Sequence record: OP745617
From: Escherichia phage F13
DNA length: 64,000 nt
Reading direction: 5' to 3' (one strand)
Both the position numbers and the translations under genes were made by a program. The notes beneath the pieces are model-generated. The model was not told the origin of the DNA, did no database searches, and was given only the letters and a program-made list of their open reading frames with translations. Shown here in pieces: positions 24,656 to 62,370 of the stretch (position 1 is the first letter of the stretch; each line of letters begins with the position of its first letter).

Positions 24656-24657
24656 AC

Positions 24658-25275
24658 ATGACTTTCCAAACTAGTGTAGGCCGTCAATATACAACTGGCT
24701 TTCCTGGCGACATCGTTCGCGACGGCCCACAGCGTGGGAAGCCAGGCCGAATCGTTAGCGCCAACGACGGTGCAAACGTAAACGCCATCAGCCGTGTGTT
24801 TGGTTTTAAGGCTGACGTGTCATTAATGGGTACTGGCCAGACCAAAACCTTGGGCGCGCAGGACTTTGAAGTTGAACTGGGCGGCACCAATTACTATGGC
24901 ATCCTTGGCAACAGCAAGCGTTACGCTCTGTATGGCAACTCTACTGGTCCTTTGGGTGCCAGCATGGTTCTGCCTCAATATAGCGAAGGCGAGTTCTACG
25001 ATATGTGCACGGGCCTCGTAGTTGAAGTGTTCAACCCAAGCACCAGTCCGCAGACGCTGAACTACGGCGACCTGCTCGCTTATGTACCTAAAGGCATTTC
25101 CAGCGGTAACAACCCGAACAACTTGCCTATCGGTGCAATTATCGCCTATACTGGCTCACTGCCAACTGGCATGGTTGCCATTCCAGGCGGTATCGTGATT
25201 GACCCGACTGCTATTGCCCTTTCCGGCCCAAGCGTCCAGTCTTCCACTTATACCATTGTACAATTGACTCGTTAA
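24658..25275 (+). CDS. head-associated structural protein (205 aa)
   Basis: ATG after AAAGGGG RBS; Gly/Ser-rich; immediately upstream of capsid. Confidence 0.45.
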   Translation: MTFQTSVGRQYTTGFPGDIVRDGPQRGKPGRIVSANDGANVNAISRVFGFKADVSLMGTGQTKTLGAQDFEVELGGTNYYGILGNSKRYALYGNSTGPLGASMVLPQYSEGEFYDMCTGLVVEVFNPSTSPQTLNYGDLLAYVPKGISSGNNPNNLPIGAIIAYTGSLPTGMVAIPGGIVIDPTAIALSGPSVQSSTYTIVQLTR

Positions 25276-25289
25276 TAGGCAGGTGAATA

Positions 25290-46738: not shown

Positions 46739-47328
46739 TCAAACTCCTTATTCATCACTTGTTCCAGCGCATAGGCGTAAGCCTGATCAGTAGATTTGAT
46801 GAACGTTCCGTTGTACATGACACCTTTGCGGTCCTTGATGTCTTCGTAGGCCGCTTGCGCACAGTCGGATAAGCGAAGGCCATAATCATGAGCTACGCCG
46901 GAAAGGTAATCGACTGCGGCCATGATGGTGACGTCAATATCCATGGTCTGATTCTTAGCAATAGCATCACCAAGCCGTCCAAGGGTCTTTGCCAGGCGAA
47001 GGATGAATGAATGAGGGTGAGCGCCTTTATCAGCACAACCGCCGCCATTAATGTTTTCGATTTCAGTACCGTTTTGCGCCGCCAGGATGGTCAACACAAC
47101 AAGACAATCGCCAATGTCGTCCTTGATTGCAGCTTGCAAGTCACAGATGGCCTGCTCTGTATATCCAATTTCAGGGTCGAAGAACACAAGGTCATGGAGT
47201 TGATCAACGTGGTCGGTTAACTCCCCAAACTCGCTGATAAGCTTCGGGTATTGGTCCTTAAGGTCGCAACCTTGGATGATGTTACGGTCAGAAGCCCACT
47301 GGCGAATGTTTGCATAAATCTGTTTCAT
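46735..47328 (-). CDS. MazG-like nucleotide pyrophosphohydrolase candidate
   Basis: 197 aa; acidic helix motifs (LISEFGELTDHVDQL, DDIGDCLVVLTILA). Confidence 0.4.
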   Translation of the reverse strand: MKQIYANIRQWASDRNIIQGCDLKDQYPKLISEFGELTDHVDQLHDLVFFDPEIGYTEQAICDLQAAIKDDIGDCLVVLTILAAQNGTEIENINGGGCADKGAHPHSFILRLAKTLGRLGDAIAKNQTMDIDVTIMAAVDYLSGVAHDYGLRLSDCAQAAYEDIKDRKGVMYNGTFIKSTDQAYAYALEQVMNKEFE

Positions 47329-47901: not shown

Positions 47902-48762
47902 TTAAAACTCTTCTGCGTCGGTCGGAGTTTCATTGACAGGGCCAGCGGCACCGCTTGCTTCTTCCTGCTTGCTGCGGTCAATGTTAACGTTGCCGCCAAC
48001 TACGTCGTTGTGGAATGCCTTGGCGACTTCGTACAGACCTTTGTCCTGCACCAGACCTTCCAGCTCAAACTTCAGAACTGACCATGTATTGCCGTCTTTG
48101 GACTGGGATGCAGTGCCCATGCGAACGATGTTCATAAAGGTCGGCGGCGTTTTCAGACCCTGCGGAGTCTGAACTTTCTTCTGCTGCAGAGCTGTCATCA
48201 GCATGCGAGACGGCTTGATCATGGAAGAAGTCAGAGACAGCATTGCGCTACCAAATTCACCAGTTTCTTCGTTCAACAGAATTACGAAGTGGTTACGTGT
48301 ATCTGCGTAGTAAGGCGATTTCTTCTCGTGCACCTTGCCGTTTTCGTCCGGCACAAACACTTTACCGTTGATCTCAACAGCGCGCCCTGCCGCGACTTCT
48401 GCATCAACGTGCTCTTTGGTGAATTCACCTTTAAAGCCTTTATCGTCGGACTCGCGACCGCCCCAAAGGATGAAGGTGCGTTTGAATGCACAAGGGATGA
48501 TCTGCACGCCTTTCTTGCCGTCATACAACTCACCAGTGACGGTGTTGTAAAGCATGCCAGCTTTTGCGCCAGGAACGTGTTTCGGATCATCTTCGTCGAC
48601 CATAGGTGACATCTTCTGCAGGACGACGATAAAAGGAATGGCATACGCATCGGCATCGGCACCTTCAAAACCAGCGCCAAAATCGGTCATGTCGACAAAA
48701 TCGGCCATAGCGGACATCTGGGTGTTTTTCACTGCAACTTCGGTGGTTTCTTTCTTAGACAT
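47902..48762 (-). CDS. single-stranded DNA-binding protein candidate (T7 gp2.5-like)
   Basis: 286 aa; acidic C-terminal tail ending in Phe (TDAEEF); position in the replication module. Confidence 0.35.
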   Translation of the reverse strand: MSKKETTEVAVKNTQMSAMADFVDMTDFGAGFEGADADAYAIPFIVVLQKMSPMVDEDDPKHVPGAKAGMLYNTVTGELYDGKKGVQIIPCAFKRTFILWGGRESDDKGFKGEFTKEHVDAEVAAGRAVEINGKVFVPDENGKVHEKKSPYYADTRNHFVILLNEETGEFGSAMLSLTSSMIKPSRMLMTALQQKKVQTPQGLKTPPTFMNIVRMGTASQSKDGNTWSVLKFELEGLVQDKGLYEVAKAFHNDVVGGNVNIDRSKQEEASGAAGPVNETPTDAEEF

Positions 48763-48821: not shown

Positions 48822-49379
48822 TTACTTTTTGCTTTTAGGCAAGGTTATTTTAGCTTCTTTGTATTCAAAAACGCTAATATCTTCACTAACTGGATTGCCT
48901 GCTTCCAGCTGTTCTTTTACAAATGACTTCAGTGTAGCAGAATGAACGCCTTGTTTCAATGTGGCTTCAACGCCATCTTCACGCAGCGCGGCAACAATCT
49001 CTTGCGCCTGTTCGATTTCTTCGCGACCGAACTCAGCCGTGACGCTGGACTTGATCAAGCCGCCGTAACCGTTGTTGACAAGCCAATCGAAAACTTTTAA
49101 TTCGTTTTCTTTCTTGATTGAAGCATTCACCTTGGACTCGACCTTGATTTTGGTCTTGTCCTCAAGCTTGATTTCAGACACACCAAGCTCATCCATTACG
49201 CCAGGAAGCAAAACAGTTTTGATTTCACTGATGCGCTGCTTTTGCATATCAGCTTCATCTTCAAGCTCTGTCAAAGCTTCTTGACGTTCTGCAAGTTCAG
49301 ATACTAAGCGCGCAAGGCGCTCTTGAATGCTCTCAGGAGCGACCTGCGGCAAATCATCTTCCCAATTAATATTGCTCAT
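48822..49379 (-). CDS. hypothetical protein (185 aa), coiled-coil N-terminus
   Basis: ORF in the replication or recombination neighbourhood. Confidence 0.4.
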   Translation of the reverse strand: MSNINWEDDLPQVAPESIQERLARLVSELAERQEALTELEDEADMQKQRISEIKTVLLPGVMDELGVSEIKLEDKTKIKVESKVNASIKKENELKVFDWLVNNGYGGLIKSSVTAEFGREEIEQAQEIVAALREDGVEATLKQGVHSATLKSFVKEQLEAGNPVSEDISVFEYKEAKITLPKSKK

Positions 49380-49713: not shown

Positions 49714-51237
49714 TTAATTCATCTTTTTGCCGTCGAGGATGTGATCAGCAAGCATAGATTTCATGCTCAGTGAACGCTGAATTTCTTCATCGATGGTATC
49801 AACACCAATAAAATCAACATACAACACACTTGATTTGGTGCCGATGCGGTGATTTCGGTCTTCGGATTGCTTGCGCAGCTCGTTGTCATAGTTGCAAGAA
49901 TAATAGATTGCCAAGTCGGCGGCGGTAAGCGTGATTCCGATGCCTGCCGCTGCAGCGTGGCAAACCAAAACTTGTGTTCCACCGTTCTCGACTGTGTTTT
50001 TCTGGAAGTCATCAATCAAGAACTCTCGCTGCTCTTTCGACGTTTCACCGTTGTATACACCAGTGACCACGCCTTCAGACTCAAGCCAATCCTTAATCTG
50101 GTTCATCTCTTCCTTAAAGATGGCCCACACAATGAATTTGCGCTCTGGGTCGTCTTCCAGCACCCCTTCCACATAGTCCTTAAAGGCCGTGAATCGTGGG
50201 TTGTCTTCCATGTAGACCATCTCATCATACACCTTAACAAAGCCTGATGTCACCTGCTTCATCTTGGTGCGAGATGCGATCATCTCAAACTTAACGTTTT
50301 CTTCTTCGCCTTTGTACTCCATCAGATAGTTGTACTCATTCTTGAGTTCATCATATACATCGCGCTGCTTAGGCGACAACTCGAAGTCGATAAACTTGTA
50401 CACCTTCTCTGGAAGGTCCGGCAAGTATTCCGCTTTTGTCGCGCGGAAATAGTGCGGTTCCATCAGCCGGATAAGCTTGTCAAGGTTCTTGTACATCGGT
50501 CGGCCAAACTGGTCTTTGCGAGGCACTTGCGGAATGCCATAACCGTTGCCGCCGATTTTCTTGAGAATGGCCTGCATCTCTGGGTCGTGCGCTTCAAGCA
50601 GGACTGTAAATTCAGAGTTGAATGCACGGAACGATTTGGTGCCAAGCAAGCCAGCTTCAAGGAAGTGATATTGCATGTAAATATCAGCAGGCGAGCGCGG
50701 CAGCGGCGTACCGGAAAGGATTCGACGGGCCTTTGCCAGCCGTCCCAATTCCACAACCTTGATGGAGCGTTTGGCTGTGTTATTTTTGATACGCGTCGAT
50801 TCATCAATGATCATCAAACAGCGGTATTTCTTCAAGACCGACTCAATGTGTTGATAACCGACTGGTGTGTTGACGGTATCAATGTTGAATGAGAAGATGC
50901 GCGCAGGCACTTCGCCTTCAGGGTAGTGATCAGCAAACATCTTCTCCCAAATCGCCTTGCCCTTTTTAGTCTTCATCTTGTCATTGCCGCGCCAGTAATG
51001 CCCAATCCACTTGATGGAAAGGTGTTCTGGTGCTTCACGACGAATCCAGTTTGAGTGCACACCGTTAGGAGCGATGACAACCATGGCATCAAATGCGCCA
51101 GCGGCGAAGTGTTTTTCAAACTCTGCCAAAGCAGTCCAGGTTTTGCCAAGACCCTGCTCCATAAAATAAGCAAAGTATTTTCTGCGGCCTGCTTTATCAA
51201 GCGCCAATAATTGGTGGCGCATTCCTTGTGTTTTCAT
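49714..51237 (-). CDS. SNF2-family helicase
   Basis: 507 aa; GLGKT Walker A, DESTRIKN (DExx box), C-terminal helicase motifs. Confidence 0.8.
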   Translation of the reverse strand: MKTQGMRHQLLALDKAGRRKYFAYFMEQGLGKTWTALAEFEKHFAAGAFDAMVVIAPNGVHSNWIRREAPEHLSIKWIGHYWRGNDKMKTKKGKAIWEKMFADHYPEGEVPARIFSFNIDTVNTPVGYQHIESVLKKYRCLMIIDESTRIKNNTAKRSIKVVELGRLAKARRILSGTPLPRSPADIYMQYHFLEAGLLGTKSFRAFNSEFTVLLEAHDPEMQAILKKIGGNGYGIPQVPRKDQFGRPMYKNLDKLIRLMEPHYFRATKAEYLPDLPEKVYKFIDFELSPKQRDVYDELKNEYNYLMEYKGEEENVKFEMIASRTKMKQVTSGFVKVYDEMVYMEDNPRFTAFKDYVEGVLEDDPERKFIVWAIFKEEMNQIKDWLESEGVVTGVYNGETSKEQREFLIDDFQKNTVENGGTQVLVCHAAAAGIGITLTAADLAIYYSCNYDNELRKQSEDRNHRIGTKSSVLYVDFIGVDTIDEEIQRSLSMKSMLADHILDGKKMN

Positions 51238-51656
51238 GACAATTCCTCTAAATACTTGATGATGTGATGAATAGTTCCCTTCACGATTATCTCACGTTGA
51301 ACGTCTGCAGTATTATAACGCTTTAATTCAATAGAAGGGTGGACTAAATAAAACATCTTCTCAGAATCAACCTTAAGCAGAACAAATGATGGGTATTTCC
51401 AATCATTCCACGAAGAAAGAAAGCTGCATTGGCCTTTCTCAAATGCATTTCTGAAAGGTGCAGTGGTGGCCCTTGCAGGCCACGATTCAAAGAACTTCAT
51501 TTCAAGCCAAAAGCCGCGCCCTTTCCGGTTGGTGCCGATTACGTCCGGCACGCCATCACCAGTCATCGACTCGATTCGTTGAAGCTTCAATACCGATTCT
51601 GAATGCTTCTTCAAAGGCACGAATATGTATTTCTGCTCACGGTTATTTGTTGCCAT
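51234..51656 (-). CDS. VRR-NUC-like nuclease (PD-(D/E)xK)
   Basis: 140 aa; GDGVPDVIG...GFWLEMKF motif; commonly paired with SNF2 helicases in phages. Confidence 0.5.
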   Translation of the reverse strand: MATNNREQKYIFVPLKKHSESVLKLQRIESMTGDGVPDVIGTNRKGRGFWLEMKFFESWPARATTAPFRNAFEKGQCSFLSSWNDWKYPSFVLLKVDSEKMFYLVHPSIELKRYNTADVQREIIVKGTIHHIIKYLEELS

Positions 51657-54540
51657 CTGGATACACCTGTTTGATCACGTCAACGATGAACATGTCAATG
51701 CCTTCAAGCTTACGACCTTTCATCAGGAAGAATGCGCCGTTCCCGACGTTTTCAGCGATGTACTTCCCGTACTTCTGGAATTTCTCTGGACGAATCCTGA
51801 AGCGCATTGGCGAGTCGGTCGAGTCATCCTTGCACATAAGGTCGATGAACTGAGTCTCAAGCTTGTTCCCGTACTGGTCAAACTCTGCGTAGCGGCCATC
51901 AGCTTGAAGACCCTTTTTAAGCTTGCCGTGCTTTGTATAGATGCCGCGCTCAAGTCGTTTACGGATGCGTGTTGCTTCGTTCTCGTCCGCAAGCACTTTC
52001 TTTGTCAACTTGCCGATTACTATTGCGCGCTCGTCATCACCGACTTCCTTCATCTGGCGTATTGAAGCGCCGGACGTCACGCCAATCAGATAAGGGTCAT
52101 TATATGCCCATCCGAACTTTGTGTGCATCTCTGTCAGGTCGCCATATTTAACTTCAGCATTGGCCAATGCATCCTTCTGCTTTTGCGTTAAGGTTCCGGC
52201 TTCACGCGCTTCGATATATTTCATCGCCTTCACCATGCCGTACCCTTTCGCGTTCATGATGCCGCCGATTAGCTTTCCGTTCGCGATGGTCCAGTTCATT
52301 GAAGAGTGATCAGGGTCGATTGGCACATAATCCACGCCTTCCTTCGCAAGTTCACGTAATATCGCAATCGTCTGGTCTTCGTCCTTAGCAGCGCGTAAGC
52401 AGGCTGCGGCAAATTCCAACGGGTAGTGTCGCTTAAGCCACAAGGTCCAGTAGGTCACGACCGCGTATGACACGGAGTGTGACTTGTTAAAGCCCCATGA
52501 CCCGAACGTGGCCATCGCTTGCCAAAGCTTTCTTGCATCCGCTTCCGGTACGCCATTATTTATTGCGCCTGCAACAAAGTCCTCTCCAAGCTTGTTAAAG
52601 TATTCTTCACCCTTACGGCCTGACATTGCCTTACGTACAGCGGATGTTTTCGCCCAGTCGAATGAACCAATCTCTTTAACCACGGCCATGATTTGCTCTT
52701 GGTAAAGAAACACGCCGTAAGTCTCTTTTAGGTACGGCTCAATCTGCGGCACGTCGTACTCAATCGGCGCACGCCCTGCCGCGCGTTCAATGTATTTCTG
52801 GGCCATACCGGATGACAACGGGCCAGGTCGACCCAAAGCCGTCAGGTTGTCGATTTTGTTAAAGTTATCGACGTGCACAAAGTTTGTTACTGAGCGTACA
52901 GCGTCGCCTTCAAACTGGAAGATGCCTGACATCTTGTTTTCGTTAAGAATGTCAAGGACGCTTTGATCATCAAGCTTGATGCCGTAGAGCGTTTCAGCAT
53001 CAATAACGCCTGTATCAGAAATAATTCCGAGAGTACGAAGGCCCAACGCATCAAGCTTCAAAAGGTTAAGGTATTCGCTGTCAGGCTTATCAATTTGTGC
53101 AATCCCTTCTGCAGTTACAGTACAGTAATCAGAGATTGGGTCATTACACACAATGATTCCCGCTGCGTGAACACCTGTGTGGGACGGGTGAATCTCAAGG
53201 TCGCCCATGCAACGCGCGGCATCAGGATATTTGGCCACGAACTCTTGACCCGTGGTTGTTGTTGCAAAGGTATCCTCCAGGCCGTGACCATAACGGGCGT
53301 CACCGGATGAGTATTCAAGCAGTGCGTTTTTAATGTTGGCCGTTTCGTGGTATCCAATGTTGAACTTCTTACCAACCTGCGCCATTACTGAGTTGGCCTT
53401 AAGCGTGTTGATGTTGCCAAGCTTTGCAACGTTCATTTCGCCGTATTTCTCTTTAAGGTAATCAAACACCATGTAGCGTTTGGTATCTTCAAAGTCGATG
53501 TCGATGTCAGGAAGGTCGGCGCGGCTTACGTCGATGAATCGGGCAAACAGCAGCTTATACGGGATTGGGTCCACTTCCGTGATGCCAAGGCAATAGCAAA
53601 CAAGTGAACCAGCCGATGAGCCGCGAGCAGGACCGACGAGCATTTTTGTTTTTGCGAATCGTACAAGGTCCGCTACTACCAGAAAGTATGAGTCGAAATC
53701 TTTCAGCTGAATCTGGTGAATTTCTTCGTTGAAGCGGTCCTCATATTCCTGAGTCCATTCTTTGATGTGACCTGCTTTGAGACGGTACTCCATCCCCTCA
53801 CGCGCAAGCTTTACCATATCACCAGCAAGGTGAATAATCGGTGCCTTGCGTAATTTCAGGTCAAGTCCGACTATGCCGTTTGCTATGTCAACAGCATTGG
53901 CCGTTGCCTGATTCAGCTCATCTTCCGTCAAGATGCCTTTAAGCTGTTTGCGCAAGTCTTCCGCGTCAACGATGCAGTGCGGCTTGACCGTGTCGCGCAC
54001 TTCCCAAGCATAAGCAAAGTCAACGTGCTCAGGTGAAGGCATGTGGTTGTATCCGGTTAAAACCAGCGGCCTTCCGTTGCTGCGGTGAGCCAACACCTGG
54101 CGCTTAGCCAAAAGGAACGATGATGGGTTGACGTCTATATAATCGTAGTCCTCTGGCCGCAGCAACTCCACGGCACCGCCACAGAATTTAACGACGCCAT
54201 CGAGCGCACCGAACTCTGCACGGGTAAGCCCGCCGCGCTGCGTTGAAAGTGTTGTAGCGTTGTAAAAAGATTTTAAGTCAAGGGCCAATATCCAAGCCTT
54301 CGGTTTGAATCCCTTTTTCGGGTCCGCATCAGGGTCGATGATTGGAATCTCCATCCCAAACATAGGCTTAATATCATTTTTCTGGCATTCCTTTTCCCAG
54401 CGAACGTGACCCCATGTATTGTTATCAACTAATGCCGCGACTTCGCAGCCCAACTCTTTGAGCCGTGCTATAATTTCAGGATGCCGTCCATAAACTTCTT
54501 TGAACGTGTAACCGCTGCGAACTCTCAATTGTGGAAACAT
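51643..54540 (-). CDS. DNA polymerase III alpha-like (DnaE-type, PHP domain)
   Basis: 965 aa; N-terminal PHP; catalytic motif GPARGSSAGSLVCYCLGITEVDP...FIDVSRADLPDIDIDF. Confidence 0.9.
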   Translation of the reverse strand: MFPQLRVRSGYTFKEVYGRHPEIIARLKELGCEVAALVDNNTWGHVRWEKECQKNDIKPMFGMEIPIIDPDADPKKGFKPKAWILALDLKSFYNATTLSTQRGGLTRAEFGALDGVVKFCGGAVELLRPEDYDYIDVNPSSFLLAKRQVLAHRSNGRPLVLTGYNHMPSPEHVDFAYAWEVRDTVKPHCIVDAEDLRKQLKGILTEDELNQATANAVDIANGIVGLDLKLRKAPIIHLAGDMVKLAREGMEYRLKAGHIKEWTQEYEDRFNEEIHQIQLKDFDSYFLVVADLVRFAKTKMLVGPARGSSAGSLVCYCLGITEVDPIPYKLLFARFIDVSRADLPDIDIDFEDTKRYMVFDYLKEKYGEMNVAKLGNINTLKANSVMAQVGKKFNIGYHETANIKNALLEYSSGDARYGHGLEDTFATTTTGQEFVAKYPDAARCMGDLEIHPSHTGVHAAGIIVCNDPISDYCTVTAEGIAQIDKPDSEYLNLLKLDALGLRTLGIISDTGVIDAETLYGIKLDDQSVLDILNENKMSGIFQFEGDAVRSVTNFVHVDNFNKIDNLTALGRPGPLSSGMAQKYIERAAGRAPIEYDVPQIEPYLKETYGVFLYQEQIMAVVKEIGSFDWAKTSAVRKAMSGRKGEEYFNKLGEDFVAGAINNGVPEADARKLWQAMATFGSWGFNKSHSVSYAVVTYWTLWLKRHYPLEFAAACLRAAKDEDQTIAILRELAKEGVDYVPIDPDHSSMNWTIANGKLIGGIMNAKGYGMVKAMKYIEAREAGTLTQKQKDALANAEVKYGDLTEMHTKFGWAYNDPYLIGVTSGASIRQMKEVGDDERAIVIGKLTKKVLADENEATRIRKRLERGIYTKHGKLKKGLQADGRYAEFDQYGNKLETQFIDLMCKDDSTDSPMRFRIRPEKFQKYGKYIAENVGNGAFFLMKGRKLEGIDMFIVDVIKQVYPDGNK

Positions 54541-55082
54541 TATTTACTCCAGATGTCATATACGCCAATTTGTTGGCAGACTTTGTGCAGTAATATTACG
54601 TCGTCTAATGCACGGTGCTTCTGTTCATATTTTCCGAAATATAATTCATACAACTCTTGAAGCTTAACTCTTCGGCCAAAAATAGGCAAGGTTTGCTCAA
54701 CTGTACATATGTTTATTTCTGGAAAATTAACATCATCAAGCGTAAGTCCTTCGCGCTGTAGTGCATAATCAAGAATGTTTTTATCGAACGCATGGTTGTG
54801 CGCGATAGTTGCATCAGTCTTCTTGAAGATTTCTTTTAGCTGCGGGACGAAATTGATGAACGGTGGATTGCACTCAAGGTCTTCATTTGTTAATCCGGTA
54901 ATCTTTGTGATGATTTCTTCGATCACAATTTCAGGATTAATTATGAATTCAAAAGTTTCAAGAATCTCTTTGCCGTCTGTCAACAGACCTGCAAATTCAA
55001 TAGGGCGCGGCTGCATCCCAAGCGGCGCTTTCGGGTGCACTGTCAATCCGGTTGTTTCGAAGTCATAAGGGAGAAATAACAC
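54540..55082 (-). CDS. DnaQ-like 3'-5' exonuclease (DEDDh)
   Basis: 180 aa; Exo I YDFETTG, Exo II HNHAFD, Exo III HRALDD. Confidence 0.7.
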   Translation of the reverse strand: MLFLPYDFETTGLTVHPKAPLGMQPRPIEFAGLLTDGKEILETFEFIINPEIVIEEIITKITGLTNEDLECNPPFINFVPQLKEIFKKTDATIAHNHAFDKNILDYALQREGLTLDDVNFPEINICTVEQTLPIFGRRVKLQELYELYFGKYEQKHRALDDVILLHKVCQQIGVYDIWSK

Positions 55083-55136: not shown

Positions 55137-55688
55137 TTATACAGTGTACGGAGTACCGTCTTGATTCAAGCGCACGATAAACTTCAAATCAACGCCGATG
55201 ATTTCACGCGTATCAAAGATCACATAGTTGTAACGACGTTGACCAGCAATGTTCGGGTTGGTATGAGAGTCAGTTACAACTTCCTGTGCAACCTGAATAC
55301 CTTCTTCTTTAAAGAACTTACGCCATTCAGCAAGTTCAGCGGCAGTCACGTGCATGCCAAGGTGGCTGACCTGATTGTCATGCGCATCGATATATTCGAT
55401 GTTTTCGTTAATCCAGTTGCAGCCCATTGTGTAGTCAAGGATTTCAAGCTCAAGAGGCTTACCAGCGCCGCCATCAGTACCGTTGCCAGCCTGATAGTTG
55501 AAGCGCAAGTCAGCTTCATTGGTGCAATCGTCGCGACGACCTTTAAAGTCATCAGCTTCAAATACGCGACCAGTAGCAACAACATGATCATGGAACCATT
55601 CTGTCAGGCCGATTTTAGCCAAGAAATCCTGTGCGCGCTGAGCATCTGGAATTGACAGGGCGATTTGTTCAATTTTAAAATGTGGCAT
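55137..55688 (-). CDS. VOC (glyoxalase/bleomycin-resistance-like) family candidate
   Basis: 183 aa; two beta-alpha-beta-like modules; low-confidence fold guess. Confidence 0.3.
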   Translation of the reverse strand: MPHFKIEQIALSIPDAQRAQDFLAKIGLTEWFHDHVVATGRVFEADDFKGRRDDCTNEADLRFNYQAGNGTDGGAGKPLELEILDYTMGCNWINENIEYIDAHDNQVSHLGMHVTAAELAEWRKFFKEEGIQVAQEVVTDSHTNPNIAGQRRYNYVIFDTREIIGVDLKFIVRLNQDGTPYTV

Positions 55689-55784
55689 TTTGTTTCCTTA
55701 ATTAAATATTATTGATTAATTACTGCGTTGTCTTCGTCCTGTTTCTTTTCAGGAGCGGGTGTGACAACTTCAAGTGTTCGTGAT

Positions 55785-56468
55785 TTATTTACCAAATGGA
55801 ATATCAGTGCCAGACATAAAGCGCCATGCGCCCGTAATTAAGATATGGCGAATGAAGTCAGCAATTACTTGCGGCTCAGTCTCCAATCCATTCATCAGTG
55901 CCTTTTTCTGGTATTCAGCGGCGTATTCAGGAGTCCAGCCGCGAGTCGCGCAAACGGCATCTTCAATCTGTTTAGACATGCCAGTGCCGCGCAACTTGTT
56001 AGGACTAATAGAGAATACCGTGATGCCGTACTTAGGCGTAAGTTCGTGAGCCATCTGCTTGCTGATCATAAGCGCAGCGGCCTTGGATGCATTATAACAC
56101 AAGCTGGACGTCATAGGAATATGCGCAGCATTTGAAACGATGTTGATCACAAAACCTTTGTTTTCGATAAGACCTTTCAGCGCGGCCTGAGTCGTGTTAA
56201 CGAAAGAGAATGCATTGGTGTGCATAACGCGGTTAAACTCTTCATAGTTTACATCTTCAAACCAATTGTTAGAGTTGACACCAGCACAGTTGATCAAGCC
56301 TTCAACATCATATGGGCTTAAAATTTCTTTCATCTGTTTAGCATCGCGGACGTCATATCCGTATGCTGAATCGATGCCAAGCACGTTATGACCGTAAGCG
56401 CCAAGGGTGTCAAAAATAGATTTACCAAGACCGGAATTGGAACCTGTTACAACAATTACTTTTTTCAT
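55785..56468 (-). CDS. short-chain dehydrogenase/reductase (SDR)
   Basis: 227 aa; cofactor motif VTGSNSGLGK (TGxxxGxG) and catalytic YNASK. Confidence 0.75.
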   Translation of the reverse strand: MKKVIVVTGSNSGLGKSIFDTLGAYGHNVLGIDSAYGYDVRDAKQMKEILSPYDVEGLINCAGVNSNNWFEDVNYEEFNRVMHTNAFSFVNTTQAALKGLIENKGFVINIVSNAAHIPMTSSLCYNASKAAALMISKQMAHELTPKYGITVFSISPNKLRGTGMSKQIEDAVCATRGWTPEYAAEYQKKALMNGLETEPQVIADFIRHILITGAWRFMSGTDIPFGK

Positions 56469-56533
56469 TTATTTATCCTTTTTGGACTTCGTTTCGATGA
56501 GGTAAATATAACTCATCGAAACGAACAAGTAAA

Positions 56534-57406
56534 CTATTTATTGAAATTAATATTATGGGTGTTTACAAGACGTTCACACATGGCGCTATAAACACCATCG
56601 TCGTGTATTGAGTCTTCGTGCTTCAGGCCGCTGATTGCGAAGCGTGTAAGCTTGACAATCTTAAGCTCGAACAGATGCCACATGTGGTAGTCTTCCGGCG
56701 TTTTCAACGTTACGCCATTAGGGAAAAGCACCTGCATAACCTGACCTACCATCACAGCGTTATCGCCATAGACAGCGTTGCGCTCACGGAAGGTCGCTGC
56801 CATTGCATCAAGAATATCGGCGGCAGTTGCCGGAGATTGTTCAACTTCCACAGCCTTAGTCTCTTCTTGCCCTGTTGCGCTTGGATCAATTGCTAATTGT
56901 TGCACCACTTCACCTGCTTTGCAAAGATTAAATGTAAAAGCGATTTTATTTTGAGCAACGGAGTTATAATACAATGCTTCATCTTGCATCCGCGCGAGTA
57001 CGTCTTGTCGGTCGTCGAATACATTGATGATTCGATAATCGCCGTGCCGCAAAGCGTGCGATAGCCATGCAGATTTCATAATAGTTGATGGACGTTTGTC
57101 GCCATAGTCTCTCATCTTGATTGTAAATTCATCAAAAGGGAAAACATTGTCCAGACGTTCAAAAGTCACTTGTCTGTATTTTTCTGGCCTTGCAGTCCAA
57201 TATTCAACCGCCTCACCGCGAAGAGATGCCGACTCTACTGCTGATGCAATGTGAGGATAGAACTGATCATAACCAATACCGCTGTGATAGTCATCATAGT
57301 CTGACAACGGACCTGCCACCTTGATGCGGTCTAAGCGCCAACGGTCATCAAACAGAGTTCCGTCAAGGTCGAATACGTTTAAGATTTGGTTATTTTTGAT
57401 ACTCAT
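56534..57406 (-). CDS. HAD-family phosphatase domain fused to a C-terminal domain of unknown function
   Basis: 290 aa; HAD motif I FDLDGTL, WTARP, K, NVFDD; about 120 aa of unassigned C-terminus. Confidence 0.5.
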   Translation of the reverse strand: MSIKNNQILNVFDLDGTLFDDRWRLDRIKVAGPLSDYDDYHSGIGYDQFYPHIASAVESASLRGEAVEYWTARPEKYRQVTFERLDNVFPFDEFTIKMRDYGDKRPSTIMKSAWLSHALRHGDYRIINVFDDRQDVLARMQDEALYYNSVAQNKIAFTFNLCKAGEVVQQLAIDPSATGQEETKAVEVEQSPATAADILDAMAATFRERNAVYGDNAVMVGQVMQVLFPNGVTLKTPEDYHMWHLFELKIVKLTRFAISGLKHEDSIHDDGVYSAMCERLVNTHNINFNK

Positions 57407-58206
57407 CCTTTTGATACTCCATCTTTGGCAACCGGATTATTGGTGATTGGCATCGCATCCCAAAACTGGATGCGCAACTCTTCTTGCTGTGCAGTGGTAT
57501 CCATCCAATCACGATACCAAGGGCAATGGGCCTTGCCATGGCGAGGGAATGCGCACTTGCCCATACCGATGCATTGCGGCTGTAGTAAAGGATTAGCCCA
57601 CGGGTGCACCTTGAGGACTTCCGCTACCATCGCACGGAAAACTTCCTGATACTCGCCTTGAGTACGCGTGCACAAGCGGTTAGAGGCCATTTGTTGTAGA
57701 GTGCGCAAGTTGAACTTTGCCATGATATGCGTTTGCATATTAGAAGGCAACACGGCACGTGCATCTTGAATCTCTGCGCCAGCCGCGCGAAGTTCTTGGT
57801 ATAGGGCGTCAATGGTTGCCATTGCATCATCCCATTTCTCTGCCAGTTCAGCAGCCTTCTCGTCATGACGAGTCCATCCCTTTGGATCATCCTCTGGGTA
57901 AGTGAATTTGGCAGGACGAATCGCATCAAACGCTGACGACTCCTGAGCGCGGCTTGTTCGTTCTTGATATGCACCTGTTCGTGTGCGCACCATCTGATGA
58001 GTCATATTCTTTGATACATCAGTGATGTCAAAGATATAGTCAACAAAGTCGAAAGGTGACTTTATGGTGTCAAGCATGTAGCGCCAGTGCTCTTGCTTCT
58101 CTGATTCTGTCATCTCAGAGACTGGCTTACCAGCCATGCGCGTATTCTTTGTTTCCAGCAGAAGGTCAAGTGCATCTTGGGTGTATCGAATTAATTCAAC
58201 TTTCAT
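57403..58206 (-). CDS. divergent flavin-dependent thymidylate synthase (ThyX)-like protein
   Basis: 267 aa; N-terminus and core align with ThyX (PFDFVDYIFDI...HQMVRTRTGAYQERTSR; ARAVLPSN) but RHR is RTR; Cys-rich C-terminal extension. Confidence 0.55.
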   Translation of the reverse strand: MKVELIRYTQDALDLLLETKNTRMAGKPVSEMTESEKQEHWRYMLDTIKSPFDFVDYIFDITDVSKNMTHQMVRTRTGAYQERTSRAQESSAFDAIRPAKFTYPEDDPKGWTRHDEKAAELAEKWDDAMATIDALYQELRAAGAEIQDARAVLPSNMQTHIMAKFNLRTLQQMASNRLCTRTQGEYQEVFRAMVAEVLKVHPWANPLLQPQCIGMGKCAFPRHGKAHCPWYRDWMDTTAQQEELRIQFWDAMPITNNPVAKDGVSKG

Positions 58207-58219
58207 TTTAATTATCCTA

Positions 58220-58666
58220 TTAACGGTAGTTAACTAGTTGCTGATCACCAGAGAAGGTGCAATGATAAACGAATTGTGCGTTATAAAGCAACTGAAAACT
58301 TTTCTTTGGTTCATTATTAGAACTCATTGATGTAAAGATTTCTGCACCAGAACGGTTTTCACCAATCAGGTTGATAAAGCCGCCAGTTGAACGAGGCTGA
58401 ACGAAAGTGAAACGTTGCATCCACGGAGTGCGGTTGGCACCTTTCCCTGTGAATCCTTGAATCTGAATATTCAGGCCTTCTTGCTCGTTCACACCGATGT
58501 AAGTGGTAATTGTTGCGCCAGTCGTTGCTGCAGTCTTGCCGTCCATCGCTTCGCAATCGTAAACAGCGATTGAATCGGAAGTACGGACAGCGGCTTCAGT
58601 CGCTTCCATATACATGGTTCCGAGAATAGCAGTTGCGGCAAGCGCGATTCCAGTGATTCGTTTCAT
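58220..58666 (-). CDS. small secreted protein (148 aa)
   Basis: Signal peptide MKRITGIALAATAILGTMYMEATEAA; two Cys. Confidence 0.45.
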   Translation of the reverse strand: MKRITGIALAATAILGTMYMEATEAAVRTSDSIAVYDCEAMDGKTAATTGATITTYIGVNEQEGLNIQIQGFTGKGANRTPWMQRFTFVQPRSTGGFINLIGENRSGAEIFTSMSSNNEPKKSFQLLYNAQFVYHCTFSGDQQLVNYR

Positions 58667-58731
58667 TTTCGTTTCCTCTATGAGTTCTGCTTCAATGATT
58701 AAAGTATACGCCCATTGAAGCAGAAAGCAAA

Positions 58732-59727
58732 TTATTTATTAGCAATATAAGCAAATTTTTGATAGTTATTTGCTTTGATGAGTTTTTCAACTTCAACAAG
58801 GTCATGAGCAACGTCATCAAGCAAAATGTTTCGCCAAGTAGCAAAGCGACCGACACTAAATACGTTCAAATCCATGGTCAGCTGTAGGAGTAGAGCGTGT
58901 CGCAAGTCTTTCGGAATGTCGACAATCTTGCCATACTTCTGGTCGACCTTTTCAACTTCTTCGAGATCGATGTCACTCCATGATAGGCCAAAGGCTGTCA
59001 ATACTTCGTCAACTTCTGCACGCAACTTAATGTCACGGTAACGAGTAATGCCGCCAGCGGCTTCAACTGCGGCTTCACTTACGCTAACCAAAGGAATTGT
59101 TTCAATGATCAGTGTGTCACCAGTGATTGATGCGCGGTAAGTTCTGACGGAGTAGTCAGGAAAGTAAATGGTTTGATACAGTGCACACTTGCGCTTAATC
59201 TTAAAGCGGTAAACACGAATGTTTGCCTTATCGAATGAGAAATCAATCTTTTGATCAATCCCAGCAAGCTTCATCATGACTGGCAGCGGCGACGTGTTGA
59301 TGATTGGCGTCTCGCTATAGCCGCAAAGAGTATCAACAGGAGTATTAAAGAATATGCGGTCACCCAGTTTGTCGACAAGCTGATCATAAAAGTCATCAGG
59401 CGCAATATAACGCGTTGCAGTTTTAAGCTTCATGATTGAGCGGCTACCGAATTGATTAGTGACCTTCATGGAATACATATTGGCAAGGTTGATTGGGCAA
59501 TGGTCGTGGTAGTAGTTGCCGCGAAAATACACAGCCTTGTCAACTGTCACGGCCTTAAAAGGGATTCCGGTAATACGGCTTACTTCTTCGCCGCGAAATC
59601 GTAGCAAAGCCTTGTGCTGTGGCGCTCGTTCCCCTGCTTCGTACACAATGGAGTTCGGGAAGTGACACGCGGTAATAAGTCCTGCCAAACCGCCGCCGAT
59701 AATCATTACAGGTTGTTTCATGTTCAT
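58732..59727 (-). CDS. FAD/NAD(P)-binding oxidoreductase
   Basis: 331 aa; N-terminal Rossmann motif VMIIGGGLAGLITA. Confidence 0.55.
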   Translation of the reverse strand: MNMKQPVMIIGGGLAGLITACHFPNSIVYEAGERAPQHKALLRFRGEEVSRITGIPFKAVTVDKAVYFRGNYYHDHCPINLANMYSMKVTNQFGSRSIMKLKTATRYIAPDDFYDQLVDKLGDRIFFNTPVDTLCGYSETPIINTSPLPVMMKLAGIDQKIDFSFDKANIRVYRFKIKRKCALYQTIYFPDYSVRTYRASITGDTLIIETIPLVSVSEAAVEAAGGITRYRDIKLRAEVDEVLTAFGLSWSDIDLEEVEKVDQKYGKIVDIPKDLRHALLLQLTMDLNVFSVGRFATWRNILLDDVAHDLVEVEKLIKANNYQKFAYIANK

Positions 59728-59860: not shown

Positions 59861-60706
59861 TTATTCCGCTTGATCACCGTCTTCGGCATTGTCGTTGGAT
59901 TCAACATCGACAAACTCGATGTGGCCCATCTCTTCCAGCTTGCTCAGGTAGGAGCGAACGGAAGCGCCAAACAGTTGATCTTTAACTTTTTCGCCCAGCT
60001 CATCGATAGACTGCGCCACGCCAACTTCGCCTTCTTTGATCGCCGCCAGAACGCGTCCACGGGTGGAATGCTCTTGCGGCTGGCTCAGGCCATTGCCGGT
60101 GTAGATGAAGTGAGTGGCTTTTGCACGACGCTGACCGTTTGCCTTTTTAGCAGCCTTGCGCTCTGCGATGGCTTTGCGACGTTCTTCAGCTTCTTTCTTA
60201 CGCTGTTCTTTCTGCTGTTCTGCAGCTTCTTTAGCCGCAATCTTAGCAGCTTCACGCTCTGCCTTGCGTTTCGCTTTAGCTTCTTCTTTGGCCTTCTCTT
60301 TTTCGGCCTTCGCTGCAGCACGGGCTTGATCACGCTCTGCTTTCTTGGCCGCAGCCTGCTCAGCTTTCAGGCGCTTGGCTTCTTCTTTAGCCTTTGCCTT
60401 TTCGATTTCTTTTGCTGCTTTAGCGGCTTCACGCTCTGCTTTCTTAGCAGCAGCCTTTTCTGCACGCTCTTTAGCTTTCTTAGCTGCTTCTTCAGCACGC
60501 TTCTGCGCCTTCTCATCAGCAGCCTGCTTGCGTTTCAGCGCAGCTTCTTCACGCTTGGCTTGTTTTTCCTGCTCACGCTTCTGGCGCTTCTCTTCGGCTT
60601 CTTTCTTTTTAGCCAGGCGTTTTTCTTCAGCCACGCGACGACGTTCTGCTGCGGCTGCTTGTTTTTCTTCTTTAGATAATACTTTGATTGCTTCGGCCAT
60701 ATTCAC
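59861..60706 (-). CDS. Lys/Ala/Glu-rich low-complexity protein with C-terminal globular domain
   Basis: 281 aa; about 190 aa of KEA-rich helix then about 80 aa of ordinary sequence; opposite-strand ORF is a shadow. Confidence 0.5.
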   Translation of the reverse strand: MNMAEAIKVLSKEEKQAAAAERRRVAEEKRLAKKKEAEEKRQKREQEKQAKREEAALKRKQAADEKAQKRAEEAAKKAKERAEKAAAKKAEREAAKAAKEIEKAKAKEEAKRLKAEQAAAKKAERDQARAAAKAEKEKAKEEAKAKRKAEREAAKIAAKEAAEQQKEQRKKEAEERRKAIAERKAAKKANGQRRAKATHFIYTGNGLSQPQEHSTRGRVLAAIKEGEVGVAQSIDELGEKVKDQLFGASVRSYLSKLEEMGHIEFVDVESNDNAEDGDQAE

Positions 60707-60859: not shown

Positions 60860-62044
60860 TTAACGCGCTTTCAAATCACGGTACACGGTCAGATTCTTCT
60901 TAGCACGGGTGATAGCGGTGTACATCATCTTGGAGTACGGAACGCCGCGCAAGATTTCTTCCAGCACGCACACATTATCCCACTCGCTGCCTTGCGATTT
61001 GTGCACCGTGATGACATAGCCATAGTCCATCCCGCCAACAGCGCGTTGCGCTTCTTTGCGCACTTCCTGATCAGTAGAGAAGGAAAGAGGATTGATCTTC
61101 ACCTTTATATCTTTACCATCAGTTAATGAACGCAAGTTGACATACATTATTTCATTCGACTCATCTTCATCCCTTTCAAAGTCCGGCACTGGCTCATAGC
61201 TAATAACAATCCCTTGCTCGCCATTACAGAATCCTGGACCGTGTTGGTTGAATGTGCAAATAACCTTCTCGCCGATTCCTGGCATTGGCGTTATACGTCC
61301 GCTCACTTGCCGTAATAATGAATTCCATTTATCTTTGGTGCTATTATAGGAGCAAATAATTTGATCATCTTCGCCCATGAATTTCTTCAATGCAGTAACG
61401 CGCGGCGATTCTGCCAATACTTTGACGTCATCGTATTCACGCGGGGGAAGGCGGTTGCCTTGGCGCACGAAGAAGGAGGCGCGGATTATATTGGACTCTT
61501 TCCCTTGCCGCATGATTTCGGTTAACAGCACGTCAACGGCATCTTCAGTAAAGTAGGCGGCGGCTTTTACCGGAGGGACTTGTCCAATGTCGCCTAATGC
61601 CAGGACAGGGATGCGGTGATCAAGAAGGCGCTCTGTGTCCCACTCGCCAACCATCGACGCTTCATCGAGTACAACAAGGTGCGGCCTTTCATCCAGCTTT
61701 GACTTTCTCGAAAAGATTGGCTCATTGTCGTCATTTACGCCGCGCACGTTATAGATGAACTGGTGAAGGGTCTTAGCGCCACGACAGCCTTTTTGCTTTA
61801 ATCGGCTTGCAGCCTTTCCGGTCGGCGCAATATAGATAGCTCCATACTCACCGACACAACGGCGCACAATCTCGCGAGCAATAGAGGTTTTACCAGTCCC
61901 TGCATAGCCAGCGATGAAAAACACGCGCTTCGTCGTTTTACCGTCCTGCAATCGCTTGTACCATGCAACGGCTTTCTCGATGGCGTCGATTTGTTGCGCG
62001 TTAAACTGAATCACTGGCTCATCATTAAATTCTGGAATGTTCAT
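60860..62044 (-). CDS. Dda/RecD-like SF1 DNA helicase
   Basis: 394 aa; Walker A GYAGTGKTS, Walker B LVVLDEASMV, C-terminal VITVHKSQGSEWD...YTAITRAK. Confidence 0.7.
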   Translation of the reverse strand: MNIPEFNDEPVIQFNAQQIDAIEKAVAWYKRLQDGKTTKRVFFIAGYAGTGKTSIAREIVRRCVGEYGAIYIAPTGKAASRLKQKGCRGAKTLHQFIYNVRGVNDDNEPIFSRKSKLDERPHLVVLDEASMVGEWDTERLLDHRIPVLALGDIGQVPPVKAAAYFTEDAVDVLLTEIMRQGKESNIIRASFFVRQGNRLPPREYDDVKVLAESPRVTALKKFMGEDDQIICSYNSTKDKWNSLLRQVSGRITPMPGIGEKVICTFNQHGPGFCNGEQGIVISYEPVPDFERDEDESNEIMYVNLRSLTDGKDIKVKINPLSFSTDQEVRKEAQRAVGGMDYGYVITVHKSQGSEWDNVCVLEEILRGVPYSKMMYTAITRAKKNLTVYRDLKAR

Positions 62045-62370
62045 TATAACTCCACTACGCTTTCAAGGTCCAGATATACTGGAATAAAATGGCAATCTTC
62101 TTTTCGTTCAAACATCTCACCATCAACATGGCTGAAGAAAACAGTTGTGTTTGGTATCTTCCATCCTTTCTCGTCGCGCACTAAGTACGCCATGGATTCA
62201 ACAGGGATGTACAGCGATACCGGATTTGCGGCAAAAATAAATTTGATTCTGTCTGGTTGGCCCAGAAATCGCATGATTGTTAGGCTTGAATTCAATCTTG
62301 TATTAAGGAAGGACTCAACGATTCCGACGTGTGTTGCACGTTCGCGTTGCTTCGTCTCTTTTTCGTTCAT
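62044..62370 (-). CDS. hypothetical protein (108 aa)
   Basis: ORF overlapping the helicase start. Confidence 0.4.
   Translation of the reverse strand: MNEKETKQRERATHVGIVESFLNTRLNSSLTIMRFLGQPDRIKFIFAANPVSLYIPVESMAYLVRDEKGWKIPNTTVFFSHVDGEMFERKEDCHFIPVYLDLESVVEL

Follow-up and report, generated by a model that had tools for sequence, protein, structure and literature searches.

A conserved enzyme operon of Escherichia phage F13 and the Wifceviruses as a candidate route to thymidine hypermodification

The 64,000-nucleotide stretch of Escherichia phage F13 DNA analyzed here (sequence record OP745617; hereafter, the window) carries, inside its replication module, an island of six genes (55137-59727, minus strand), and we lean towards the view that this module underlies hypermodification of DNA thymidine, with a C5-substituted deoxyuridine (dU) partly replacing thymidine in the phage DNA. 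An undescribed DNA-base modification pathway is the best reading of the island, given four lines of circumstantial evidence: the encoded ThyX-like protein belongs to a non-canonical clade; its gene co-occurs with those of two partner enzymes; the phages F8 and 14-1 (genus Pbunavirus), which bear the same gene trio, have hypermodified thymidine; and Wifceviruses resist restriction by no known mechanism. An earlier note on this DNA, made from the sequence alone, had proposed just such a pathway in the service of anti-restriction. The proposal stands as our best reading on the strength of the co-occurrence and of the modified thymidine in relatives, while a dTMP synthase role is still viable and the six genes do not behave as one set. 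Partial thymidine hypermodification as an anti-restriction measure is already known in kind; what would be new is the proposed enzymology.

All six open reading frames (ORFs) outlined in the earlier note were confirmed at the same coordinates:

55137-55688, minus strand: VOC-like (vicinal oxygen chelate) protein, 183 aa
55785-56468, minus strand: classical short-chain dehydrogenase/reductase (SDR), 227 aa
56534-57406, minus strand: HAD phosphatase of the polynucleotide kinase/phosphatase (PNKP) type, followed by an acidic linker and a C-terminal domain (the HAD fusion), 290 aa
57403-58206, minus strand: non-canonical ThyX-family protein with a Thy1 domain, 267 aa
58220-58666, minus strand: signal-peptide protein, 148 aa
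58732-59727, minus strand: flavoprotein of the flavin adenine dinucleotide (FAD) type with a GxGxxG motif, 331 aa

The 4.6-kb island region shows 100% nucleotide identity to Escherichia phage vB_EcoM_SP13 (SP13; genus Wifcevirus), whose GenBank coordinates plus 6854 give window coordinates, and is 92–96% identical in 27 other Wifcevirus records (including the WFC, WFH, ECML-117, FEC19, Mansfield, and BASEL Bas98-101 phages), making a sample of 28 records in total with the island at 92–100% nucleotide identity. Given that the arrangement is kept in these 28 records and that its core recurs in unrelated phage lineages, the sequences indicate that it is not due to chance. By the same comparison, the island comprises a conserved core (flavoprotein, ThyX-like protein, and HAD fusion) and a recurrent, putatively tailoring pair (SDR and VOC-like protein), while the GenBank names of its genes are generic or hypothetical only. 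The HAD fusion gene overlaps the ThyX-like gene by 4 nt. The operon appears to tolerate small insertions: Mansfield phage has an extra 71-aa gene (8573-8788 of the examined stretch) between the VOC-like and SDR genes, where the window has only a 96-nt spacer (55689-55784), and several other Wifceviruses align across the island in 2–4 pieces.

Core and accessory enzymes of the island

The ThyX-like protein matches the Thy1 domain family (PF02511, E=1.4e-30), and its best Foldseek match is T. maritima ThyX (1o26; E=1.9e-10, TMt 0.73, ~206 columns aligned), while against the TIGR02170 thyX equivalog model it scores 83.0 bits, below the cut-off of 87.9. At positions 74-76 it reads RTR (RTRTGA, 74-79), where canonical ThyX has RHRxxS. 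The protein and its 120 best database relatives (n=121), from a clade of at least 121 sequences, were aligned to the active site of T. maritima ThyX, with the following residue counts:

His79 replaced by Thr: 121/121
Tyr91 replaced by Ala: 121/121
His53 replaced by Ile: 121/121
Arg74 replaced by His: 120/121
His178 replaced by Arg: 121/121
Ser83 replaced by Ala: 118/121
Ser88 replaced by Thr: 108/121
Equivalents of Gln75, Arg78, Arg80, Arg90, Arg147, Arg165, Arg174, and Glu182 invariant: 121/121

Four Cys are also invariant in the clade, of which Cys179 neighbors the equivalent of Arg174 and the other three (Cys212, Cys218, and Cys228) sit in a C-terminal extension of ~60 aa; these probably bind a metal or Fe-S center. 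The change from RHR to RTR and the Cys-rich extension, both singled out in the earlier note, are therefore clade-wide features, and its judgment that the protein is non-canonical is borne out by the invariant loss of His79, Tyr91, and His53 and by the score below the TIGR02170 cut-off. This is no ordinary ThyX with intact catalytic residues, several of which are replaced throughout the clade (n=121). Compared with canonical ThyX (T. maritima TM0449 and PBCV-1 A674R), the island protein shares the Thy1 domain and the fold (TMt 0.73–0.75) and keeps the dUMP-site residues listed above as invariant, whereas it departs from canonical ThyX in RTR for RHR, Ala91, Ile53, His74, Arg178, Ala83, and Thr88, and in the added Cys and extension.

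In canonical ThyX, Tyr91 and Ser88 have been described as "strictly conserved" and critical, with the Y91A variant consuming the carbinolamine intermediate >100-fold more slowly and Tyr91 proposed as the acid for methylene transfer, while His53 stacks the folate on the flavin, and the reduced flavin was shown to react directly, at its N5, with formaldehyde as a free aldehyde (PMC11940539, PMC8316439). By alignment, the clade keeps the residues that bind and activate dUMP and has lost both the folate-stacking residue and the proposed acid catalyst. That the enzyme makes something other than dTMP seems to us quite possible, at a little short of an even chance.

Alternatively, the protein could, despite its divergence, still work as a thymidylate synthase and sustain very fast replication, with unrelated passengers around it: the HAD fusion would then be a nucleotidase or a repair phosphatase of the PNKP kind, the three remaining enzymes (flavoprotein, SDR, and VOC-like protein) would be products of auxiliary metabolic genes that play no part in DNA chemistry, and restriction resistance would have another source, for instance an injected or DNA-coating protein or site avoidance. 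The strong Thy1 match, the ThyX fold, and the presence of all dUMP-binding arginines suit this account, as do the public annotations (thymidylate synthase, polynucleotide kinase, and FabG-like reductase). Set against them, every member of the clade is without ThyX residues reported as strictly conserved or kinetically critical, and the score falls below the equivalog cut-off; taken with the distributional and genomic evidence below, we consider the account rather unlikely.

The partner flavoprotein (331 aa; the GenBank start corresponds to its Met3, at 59721) belongs to phrog_4828 and to no Pfam family. Structure matching places it in the fold of the UDP-galactopyranose mutase (UGM), protoporphyrinogen oxidase (PPO), and amine oxidase superfamily, with the FAD-binding GxGxxG motif intact, in agreement with the FAD-binding oxidoreductase that the earlier note had recognized here. 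Its best structural matches are UGMs, at 11–17% identity, while searches with phmmer and a 42-sequence profile against PDB sequences, and with hhalign against E. coli Glf, matched it only at GxGxxG, the dinucleotide-binding motif. The flavoprotein is also much smaller than members of this superfamily (331 aa vs. ~365–510 aa), and its family has an invariant set of Arg, Lys, His, Tyr, and Trp residues of its own. The UGM label was not adopted, given that its basis is the fold and that neither sequence-family membership nor specific similarity to bacterial Glf was found.

Were the flavoprotein a true pyranose-furanose mutase, the operon might serve sugar-nucleotide or envelope remodeling, with the signal-peptide protein in the periplasm and the mutase, together with the SDR, a VOC-like epimerase, and the HAD phosphatase, changing the nucleotide-sugar pools or the O-antigen of the host, for instance as a block to superinfection. 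Such a role is suggested by the structural matches, for which the Mansfield annotation cites HHpred 100% to 1I8T, by the secreted protein encoded within the operon, by the K-12 O16 rfb cluster, which encodes the mutase Glf and the galactofuranosyltransferase WbbI, and by the total dependence of BASEL Wifcevirus isolates on restored O16 O-antigen as a receptor (PMC11990801). We nonetheless judge it very unlikely: the flavoprotein tracks the ThyX-like gene rather than host glycan type (Pseudomonas, Rhizobium, Xanthomonas, Cronobacter, and Vibrio), it is without specific similarity to Glf, the operon lies within the replication module, and the secreted protein is found only in Wifcevirus.

The HAD fusion matches HAD_PNKP (E=5.3e-8, above cut-off) and phrog_4889 (E=1.5e-122), and its phosphatase motifs are intact (DLDGT at 13-17, motif I; Thr71, motif II; Asp131-Asp132, motif IV). 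The phosphatase domain is followed by the acidic linker and a separate, DUF6378/DUF3310-like C-terminal domain (C-domain) of ~100 aa, so that the earlier description of a HAD phosphatase fused to a further domain holds. This C-domain is common to Pbunavirus, Rhizobium, and Microbacterium phage proteins; in the F8 orthologue it weakly matches DUF6378, and the counterpart in Cronobacter phage Ss1 carries DUF3310. The T4-type polynucleotide kinase/phosphatase label given in GenBank was rejected, as a P-loop kinase domain was not found and only the phosphatase domain matches.

The SDR (adh_short, E=4.5e-31; phrog_3142), likewise assigned in the earlier note, is of the classical type, with its cofactor and catalytic residues intact (TGSNSGLG at 8-15, fitting TGxxxGxG; Ser112; Tyr125-x3-Lys129). 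No NCBIfam model reaches its cut-off on this protein, and the FabG label was rejected, the best FabG-type NCBIfam models scoring 58–75 bits against cut-offs of 222–298. The VOC-like protein matches Glyoxalase_4 weakly and below cut-off (E=0.0025). Within its family, 10 of 41 members match Glyoxalase_4 (best 6.7e-6) and essentially no other family, residues Gln8, Glu80/82, His109, and His113 are conserved, and the family profile matched no solved VOC structure by sequence (PDB); the assignment of this 183-aa protein to the VOC (glyoxalase/dioxygenase) fold is, on sequence grounds, moderately supported. Finally, the 148-aa protein has a Sec-type N-terminal signal peptide (hydrophobic segment, A-x-A-like site) and two Cys, gave no Pfam or PHROG match, and is confined to the 28 Wifcevirus records; it is probably an inserted accessory gene that stands outside the pathway.

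Distribution of the genes and modified DNA in related phages

A tblastn search of 50,697 phage records (with a threshold of E<=1e-20 for the ThyX-like clade) found the three core proteins in almost the same genomes: 363 records for the ThyX-like clade, 361 for the flavoprotein, and 372 for the HAD fusion. The records per host genus (ThyX-like/flavoprotein/HAD fusion) include:

Pseudomonas: 292/292/293
Escherichia: 26/26/26
Rhizobium: 10/8/9
Serratia: 9/9/9
Xanthomonas: 6/6/6

The core genes are neighbors in the Pbunavirus PS44, F8, and 14-1 phages and in 206-kb Rhizobium jumbo phages, the carriers of the trio include two podophages, and Ss1, a Cronobacter podophage of 42 kb, has its flavoprotein and ThyX-like genes overlapping. 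The more distant of these lineages (Ss1 and the Rhizobium jumbo phages) have RNR at the ThyX-like motif and are missing the four Cys. That the ThyX-like protein pairs almost one to one with a single flavoprotein family, even in podophages and jumbo phages, speaks against a plain dTMP synthase among passengers.

The SDR and VOC-like protein were not found in Pbunavirus; alongside the trio, they occur in phages of Serratia, Erwinia, Pantoea, Xanthomonas, Xylella, Luteibacter, and Aeromonas, and the VOC-like protein is present in 54 phage records. The earlier note had taken the enzymes as a single pathway set, which fits the trio, co-occurring as it does across distant lineages, but not the SDR and VOC-like pair, a lineage-specific add-on, nor the Wifcevirus-only secreted protein. 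The SDR, VOC-like protein, and C-domain do recur together in actinophages, a second feature of the distribution that sits poorly with simple dTMP supply. In Microbacterium phage RikSengupta (genes 55-59, 65, and 71), a small FAD-Rossmann protein, a HAD phosphatase, an SDR (35% identity to the island protein), a VOC-like protein (33%), and a C-domain protein (49%) are encoded directly upstream of DnaE, with a GT2 glycosyltransferase and an RQR ThyX-like gene elsewhere in the genome. Gordonia phage Ranch (genes 69-75 and 84) encodes a FAD protein, a hydrolase, a methyltransferase, and an SDR beside DnaE, and its RQR ThyX-like protein has the same Cys pattern (RLC + C-x5-C-x9-C); these RQR ThyX-like proteins are 351–459 aa in length. 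RikSengupta gp55 and Ranch gp69 were tried and rejected as homologues of the flavoprotein (HMM E=0.17–0.84, hhalign probability 47%), and are treated as analogous only.

The Pbunaviruses F8 and 14-1 are distantly related to Wifcevirus, and their replication module is syntenic with that of Wifcevirus; in it, a ThyX-like protein (49% identity), a flavoprotein (~40%), and an orthologous HAD–C-domain fusion occupy the same position. The virion DNA of F8 phage is refractory to every tested enzyme with TG in its site, and liquid chromatography–mass spectrometry of F8 and 14-1 nucleosides revealed thymidine derivatives of 362 and 390 Da replacing ~1/4 of T, at TG (Yee et al., bioRxiv 2025.03.31.646159, PMC12191111). 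The authors read these adducts as a tetrose sugar-alcohol derivative and a cyclized aldopentose derivative, found no known modification genes by homology, and name no genes in the preprint (PMC12191111). In Wifcevirus, four BASEL isolates were insensitive to every tested restriction-modification (RM) system except EcoP1_I, and to all tested non-RM defenses (Humolli et al., PLoS Biol 2025, PMC11990801). Restriction resistance, along with the sparing of TG/CA palindromes described below, is seen in both groups, whereas the SDR, VOC-like protein, and secreted protein occur only on the Wifcevirus side, the adduct chemistry is established only for Pbunavirus, and F8 DNA is cut by EcoRI while Wifceviruses resist EcoRI and EcoRV in vivo.

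Besides replication proteins, the only enzyme-like genes common to the replication modules of F8 and the window are those of the ThyX-like protein, flavoprotein, HAD fusion, and a MazG-like pyrophosphatase. A ThyA-type hydroxymethylase, 5-HMUDK, aGPT-Pplase, or TET/JBP dioxygenase was found neither among the Pfam matches of the replication module (window and F8) nor in the whole-genome annotation of Mansfield phage, while the neighboring hypothetical proteins of SP13 and F8, searched for TET/JBP dioxygenases, glycosyltransferases, kinases, and ParB, gave only Pam3_gp34-like, DUF7307, weak MazG, and VapE matches. Within this scope, the enzyme set is indeed unlike known pathways, as the earlier note had remarked, and trio-bearing relatives that have hypermodified T and no other candidate enzymes count against a role limited to dTMP supply. 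In the literature, we found nothing linking the island genes or any ThyX-family protein to phage DNA hypermodification, with the partial exception of an unproven suggestion for SP-15 phage, and no paper on Wifcevirus DNA chemistry.

The MazG-like pyrophosphohydrolase (46735-47328, minus strand; Pfam MazG E=0.019, weak and below cut-off) adjoins the DNA ligase gene. It is so named in SP13, Mansfield, and Pbunavirus records and is conserved as Pbunavirus gp049, and a MazG-like gene also lies beside DnaE in Ranch phage; such a protein could tilt dNTP pools toward a modified nucleotide. A comparison of F8 (362 Da) with 14-1 (390 Da) for the gene setting adduct identity was uninformative regarding the HAD fusion, which is 80% identical between the two with the differences in the acidic linker. 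Most other proteins in this genome half are >90% identical between these phages, the most divergent pair being F8 gp070 (23894-25090 of the examined stretch) and 14-1 gp71 (23997-25301), at 56% identity. F8 gp070 is zinc-finger or coiled-coil-like, without an enzyme domain or a Wifcevirus homologue, and this pair may have to do with the different adducts of the two phages or with the anti-END inhibitor described in 14-1 phage.

If TG-specific protection operates in Wifcevirus, palindromes containing TG/CA should escape site avoidance. We compared the 64 hexamer palindromes (16 with TG/CA, 48 without) to a dinucleotide-Markov expectation, with an observed/expected ratio <0.33 taken as depleted and the two classes compared by the Fisher test. 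In the window, 0/16 palindromes with TG/CA and 16/48 without are fully absent, and the depleted palindromes (with TG/CA; without) were as follows:

SP13 window: 1/16; 19/48; p=0.010
Mansfield (other genome half): 1/16; 20/48; p=0.007
T7 (control): 8/16; 26/48; p=0.50
TH28 (control): 8/16; 24/48; p=0.61
TH27 (control): 4/16; 21/48; p=0.15
F8 (known TG-modified): 3/16; 17/48; p=0.18
14-1 (known TG-modified): 2/16; 15/48; p=0.12

The unmodified controls T7 and TH28 are without this contrast between the two classes. The Wifcevirus signals fit TG-specific protection and are suggestive, not decisive. While very strong palindrome avoidance could itself be an alternative anti-restriction strategy, and to that extent favors a working dTMP synthase with passengers, the avoidance spares TG/CA words specifically, which argues the other way. 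The palindromes absent from the window include the BamHI, KpnI, SacI, XhoI, NheI, BglII, SmaI, SacII, EagI, and ApaI sites, with XbaI present once; the counts of GATC and CCWGG are 97 and 77, where 247 and 181 are expected, while HindIII sites (56) and TGATCA (48) are over-represented. The EcoP1 site (AGACC/GGTCT) is without TG/CA, which fits EcoP1 sensitivity, and the EcoKI site contains TG, which fits EcoKI resistance; EcoCFT_I, which we take to share the EcoAI site GAG(N7)GTCA, would on that basis fit by its resistance too.

In an exploratory analysis, surviving G...C palindromes without internal TG/CA carried T...A on both flanks in 20% of cases vs. 10% expected (p=0.0004; p=0.010 in a second Wifcevirus sample), an excess not seen in seven control coliphages, F8, or 14-1. 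A 5′ T and/or 3′ A, creating TG/CA junctions, flanks 11/15 EcoRI (GAATTC) and 7/7 EcoRV (GATATC) sites in the window, and this flanking might relate to the EcoRI/EcoRV resistance of Wifceviruses. Among the actinophages, RikSengupta is missing 0/16 TG/CA-containing palindromes and 13/48 others.

The target of the pathway could also be something other than DNA, with a free modified nucleotide or nucleoside serving, for example, as a decoy or an inhibitor of host defense or nucleotide metabolism. Nucleotide-binding and sugar-type enzymes, with a phosphatase able to release a nucleoside, would suit such a product, and ThyX-family enzymes outside DNA-precursor supply exist, a ThyX-like UMP methylase acting in nucleoside-antibiotic biosynthesis. 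The insensitivity of these phages to all tested non-RM defenses (PMC11990801) would agree as well. With no export or delivery function in the operon, DNA that is itself modified at thymidine in the relatives, and a TG/CA-specific relief of palindrome avoidance that points to DNA as the target, we regard a free product as the least probable of the accounts considered here, and scarcely likely.

Proposed chemistry and known systems

Under the hypermodification reading, the self-contained operon would encode most of a flavoenzyme-based pathway whose product, a sugar- or polyol-bearing C5-substituted dU, protects DNA from restriction, and the island would be the Wifcevirus counterpart of the thymidine hypermodification of Pbunavirus F8/14-1, to which no genes are yet assigned. 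To judge from the residues that it keeps, the ThyX-like enzyme would bind flavin and dUMP and make the uracil C5 nucleophilic. Given that it is without His53 and Tyr91, the ordinary folate-methylene-plus-hydride cycle would probably not be run in the second step, where either a different carbon electrophile may be attached via flavin N5, or an exocyclic-methylene intermediate may be trapped by a hydroxyl rather than reduced. The flavoprotein, from its strict co-occurrence and its fold, would then prepare, open, or oxidize a sugar donor, or supply reducing equivalents. In a fourth step, the HAD domain, whose catalytic motif is present, would take a phosphate off the side chain or a nucleotide intermediate, and in Wifcevirus-type lineages the SDR and VOC-like protein may finally tailor the side chain by keto-reduction or isomerization. 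TG specificity could alternatively be accounted for by a flavoenzyme acting on thymine in DNA, where the last ThyX step would be reversed to an exocyclic methylene that is trapped by a sugar hydroxyl.

A specific sugar-aldehyde alkylation chemistry is doubtful in our estimation, although its outline is simple: a ThyX-type reductive transfer of an aldose carbon instead of formaldehyde would give an open-chain sugar alcohol on C5. By extension, and with equally low confidence, the ThyX-like clade might be reductive C5-alkylases or alkoxymethylases of deoxyuridylate, working via a flavin N5 adduct with a sugar aldehyde or activated sugar; the reduced flavin N5 of UGM forms an adduct with galactose. 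Such a reaction would yield dU with a 5-(polyhydroxyalkyl) or sugar substituent, from a donor prepared by the UGM/PPO-like flavoprotein as obligate partner; the four-Cys metal center would join the redox cycle, and tailoring of the chain in Wifcevirus would fall to the SDR and VOC-like protein. By our own arithmetic, 362.3 Da corresponds to dU plus a tetrahydroxypentyl group (C14H22N2O9) or, equally, to 5-hydroxymethyldeoxyuridine (5-hmdU) ether-linked to a tetritol, and 390.3 Da to 5-hmdU plus a pentose minus water or to dU with a 6-deoxyhexos-6-yl group. The first of these, 5-(tetrahydroxypentyl)-dU, matches the F8 nucleoside in mass and is the fully hydroxylated analogue of the base of SP-15 phage.

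Several points weigh against thymidine hypermodification by this operon. The phage encodes no other thymidylate synthase, and the ThyX-like protein may be a divergent working dTMP synthase with other residues compensating; the co-occurrence, moreover, could reflect a DnaE-type replication module inherited en bloc and not a common function. Both points favor the dTMP synthase with passengers. The link to Pbunavirus chemistry runs through the homology of a gene set whose role there is itself putative, and any chemistry ascribed to the flavoprotein is drawn from its fold, at 11–17% identity. The TG specificity in F8 argues for a step on DNA, while ThyX acts on free dUMP, and no DNA-recognizing transferase was identified for the TG step; F8 also makes a sugar-alcohol adduct without SDR or VOC genes. 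As for the genome signature, the palindrome signal is modest (p ~0.01, few controls) and runs in the same direction but weaker in the true positives F8 and 14-1 (p=0.12–0.18), and TG-only protection does not explain the EcoRI/EcoRV resistance, the window having 15 and 7 sites, respectively, and neither site containing TG/CA.

Compared with known systems, the proposed outcome is the same as in the ViI, M6, SP10, and PhiW-14 pathways (Lee et al. 2018, 2021), in which a bulky C5 derivative takes the place of part of the T as an anti-restriction measure. Those pathways, however, append amino acids or polyamines, and employ a dUMP hydroxymethylase of the ThyA family, a kinase for 5-hmdU in DNA, and DNA-acting transferases of the aGPT-Pplase type, none of which is detectable here. 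A flavin-dependent pyrimidine C5 chemistry in a thymidylate-synthase-superfamily enzyme is also seen in the 5-hydroxy-dCMP synthases of the RB69 and DLP3 phages, where it is the first step on the route to glycosylated DNA bases (Lee et al., NAR 2026, PMC13326640), though these have the ThyA fold rather than ThyX, act on the cytosine base, and feed different downstream glycosyltransferases.

A closer architectural parallel to the island is offered by Bacillus phage SP-15, whose 5-(4′,5′-dihydroxypentyl)uracil, as indicated by titles in the reference list of PMC5977210, is labeled from ribose and made as the nucleoside triphosphate. Like the side chain proposed for the island, that of SP-15 is a C5 chain of the polyol type, and the SDR gene gp129 lies directly against gp130, a highly divergent member of the Thy1 family, while gp135, a HAD phosphatase gene, is five genes downstream (6026-7911 and 4555-5106 in the examined stretches). 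The two differ in that gp130 is without the whole RxR motif and no UGM-like flavoprotein was found in the SP-15 region examined. These three proteins were rejected as relatives of the island proteins, with no specific similarity (phmmer E>0.09), and so may serve by analogy as a precedent with putative roles.

Few Pseudomonas phages see as much therapeutic use as the Pbunaviruses, whose DNA hypermodification was found only in 2025. The operon provides a short gene list for two questions, the makers of the Pbunavirus adducts and the cause of restriction resistance in Wifcevirus: the ThyX-like protein, its partner flavoprotein, and the HAD fusion, joined by the SDR and VOC-like protein in Wifcevirus. 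It also defines a ThyX subfamily that is without residues thought indispensable, in a module suggested to reach podophages, jumbo phages, and actinophages. If the hypermodification reading is correct, the enzymology would be built on the ThyX fold rather than the ThyA fold and would yield a sequence marker for predicting modified genomes, with bearing on phage engineering, on sequencing and cloning artifacts, and on the target range of modification-dependent nucleases (END family). Were the C5-alkylase chemistry also true, the ThyX fold would gain a new reaction class, and a new and widespread way of hypermodifying DNA would be known from phages of proteobacteria and from actinophages.

Boundaries of the island and neighboring genes

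The following features flank the island in the window:

51643-54540: DnaE
54540-55082: DnaQ-like exonuclease
55120-55101, minus strand: intrinsic terminator at the downstream island boundary, before the DnaQ-like gene; 8-bp stem (7 GC pairs), then TTTTT
59832-59812, minus strand: intrinsic terminator at the upstream island boundary, closing the Lys/Glu/Ala-rich gene; 8-bp stem, then TTTTT
59861-60706, minus strand: Lys/Glu/Ala-rich protein of 281 aa, between the island and the helicase
60860-62044: RecD/Dda-like helicase

The independent annotation of Mansfield phage has terminators at both same spots, and the six genes are predicted to be a separate transcription unit bracketed by two strong minus-strand terminators. 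The earlier note had placed six co-oriented genes between DnaE/DnaQ and the helicase; the six minus-strand ORFs and the DnaE/DnaQ side are as described, but the 281-aa gene intervenes before the helicase. This Lys/Glu/Ala-repeat protein, which adjoins the island upstream, has a conserved C-terminal domain (phrog_4765; 51–54% identity to Pbunavirus gp066) and is possibly a DNA-coating or histone-like protein.

Two conserved ORFs in the vicinity are without a family match: one of 140 aa (51234-51656, minus strand), which lies between a helicase and DnaE and overlaps both neighbors, and one of 108 aa (62044-62370, minus strand), downstream of the RecD-like helicase and before the divergently transcribed primase gene. 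The replication module also encodes a Pam3_Gp34-like protein (47902-48762, minus strand; E=4e-86) and a DUF7307/Pam3 gp33-like protein (48822-49379, minus strand; E=3e-37), each with a counterpart among Pbunavirus gp051/gp052, and this pair provides further candidates for DNA-related functions.

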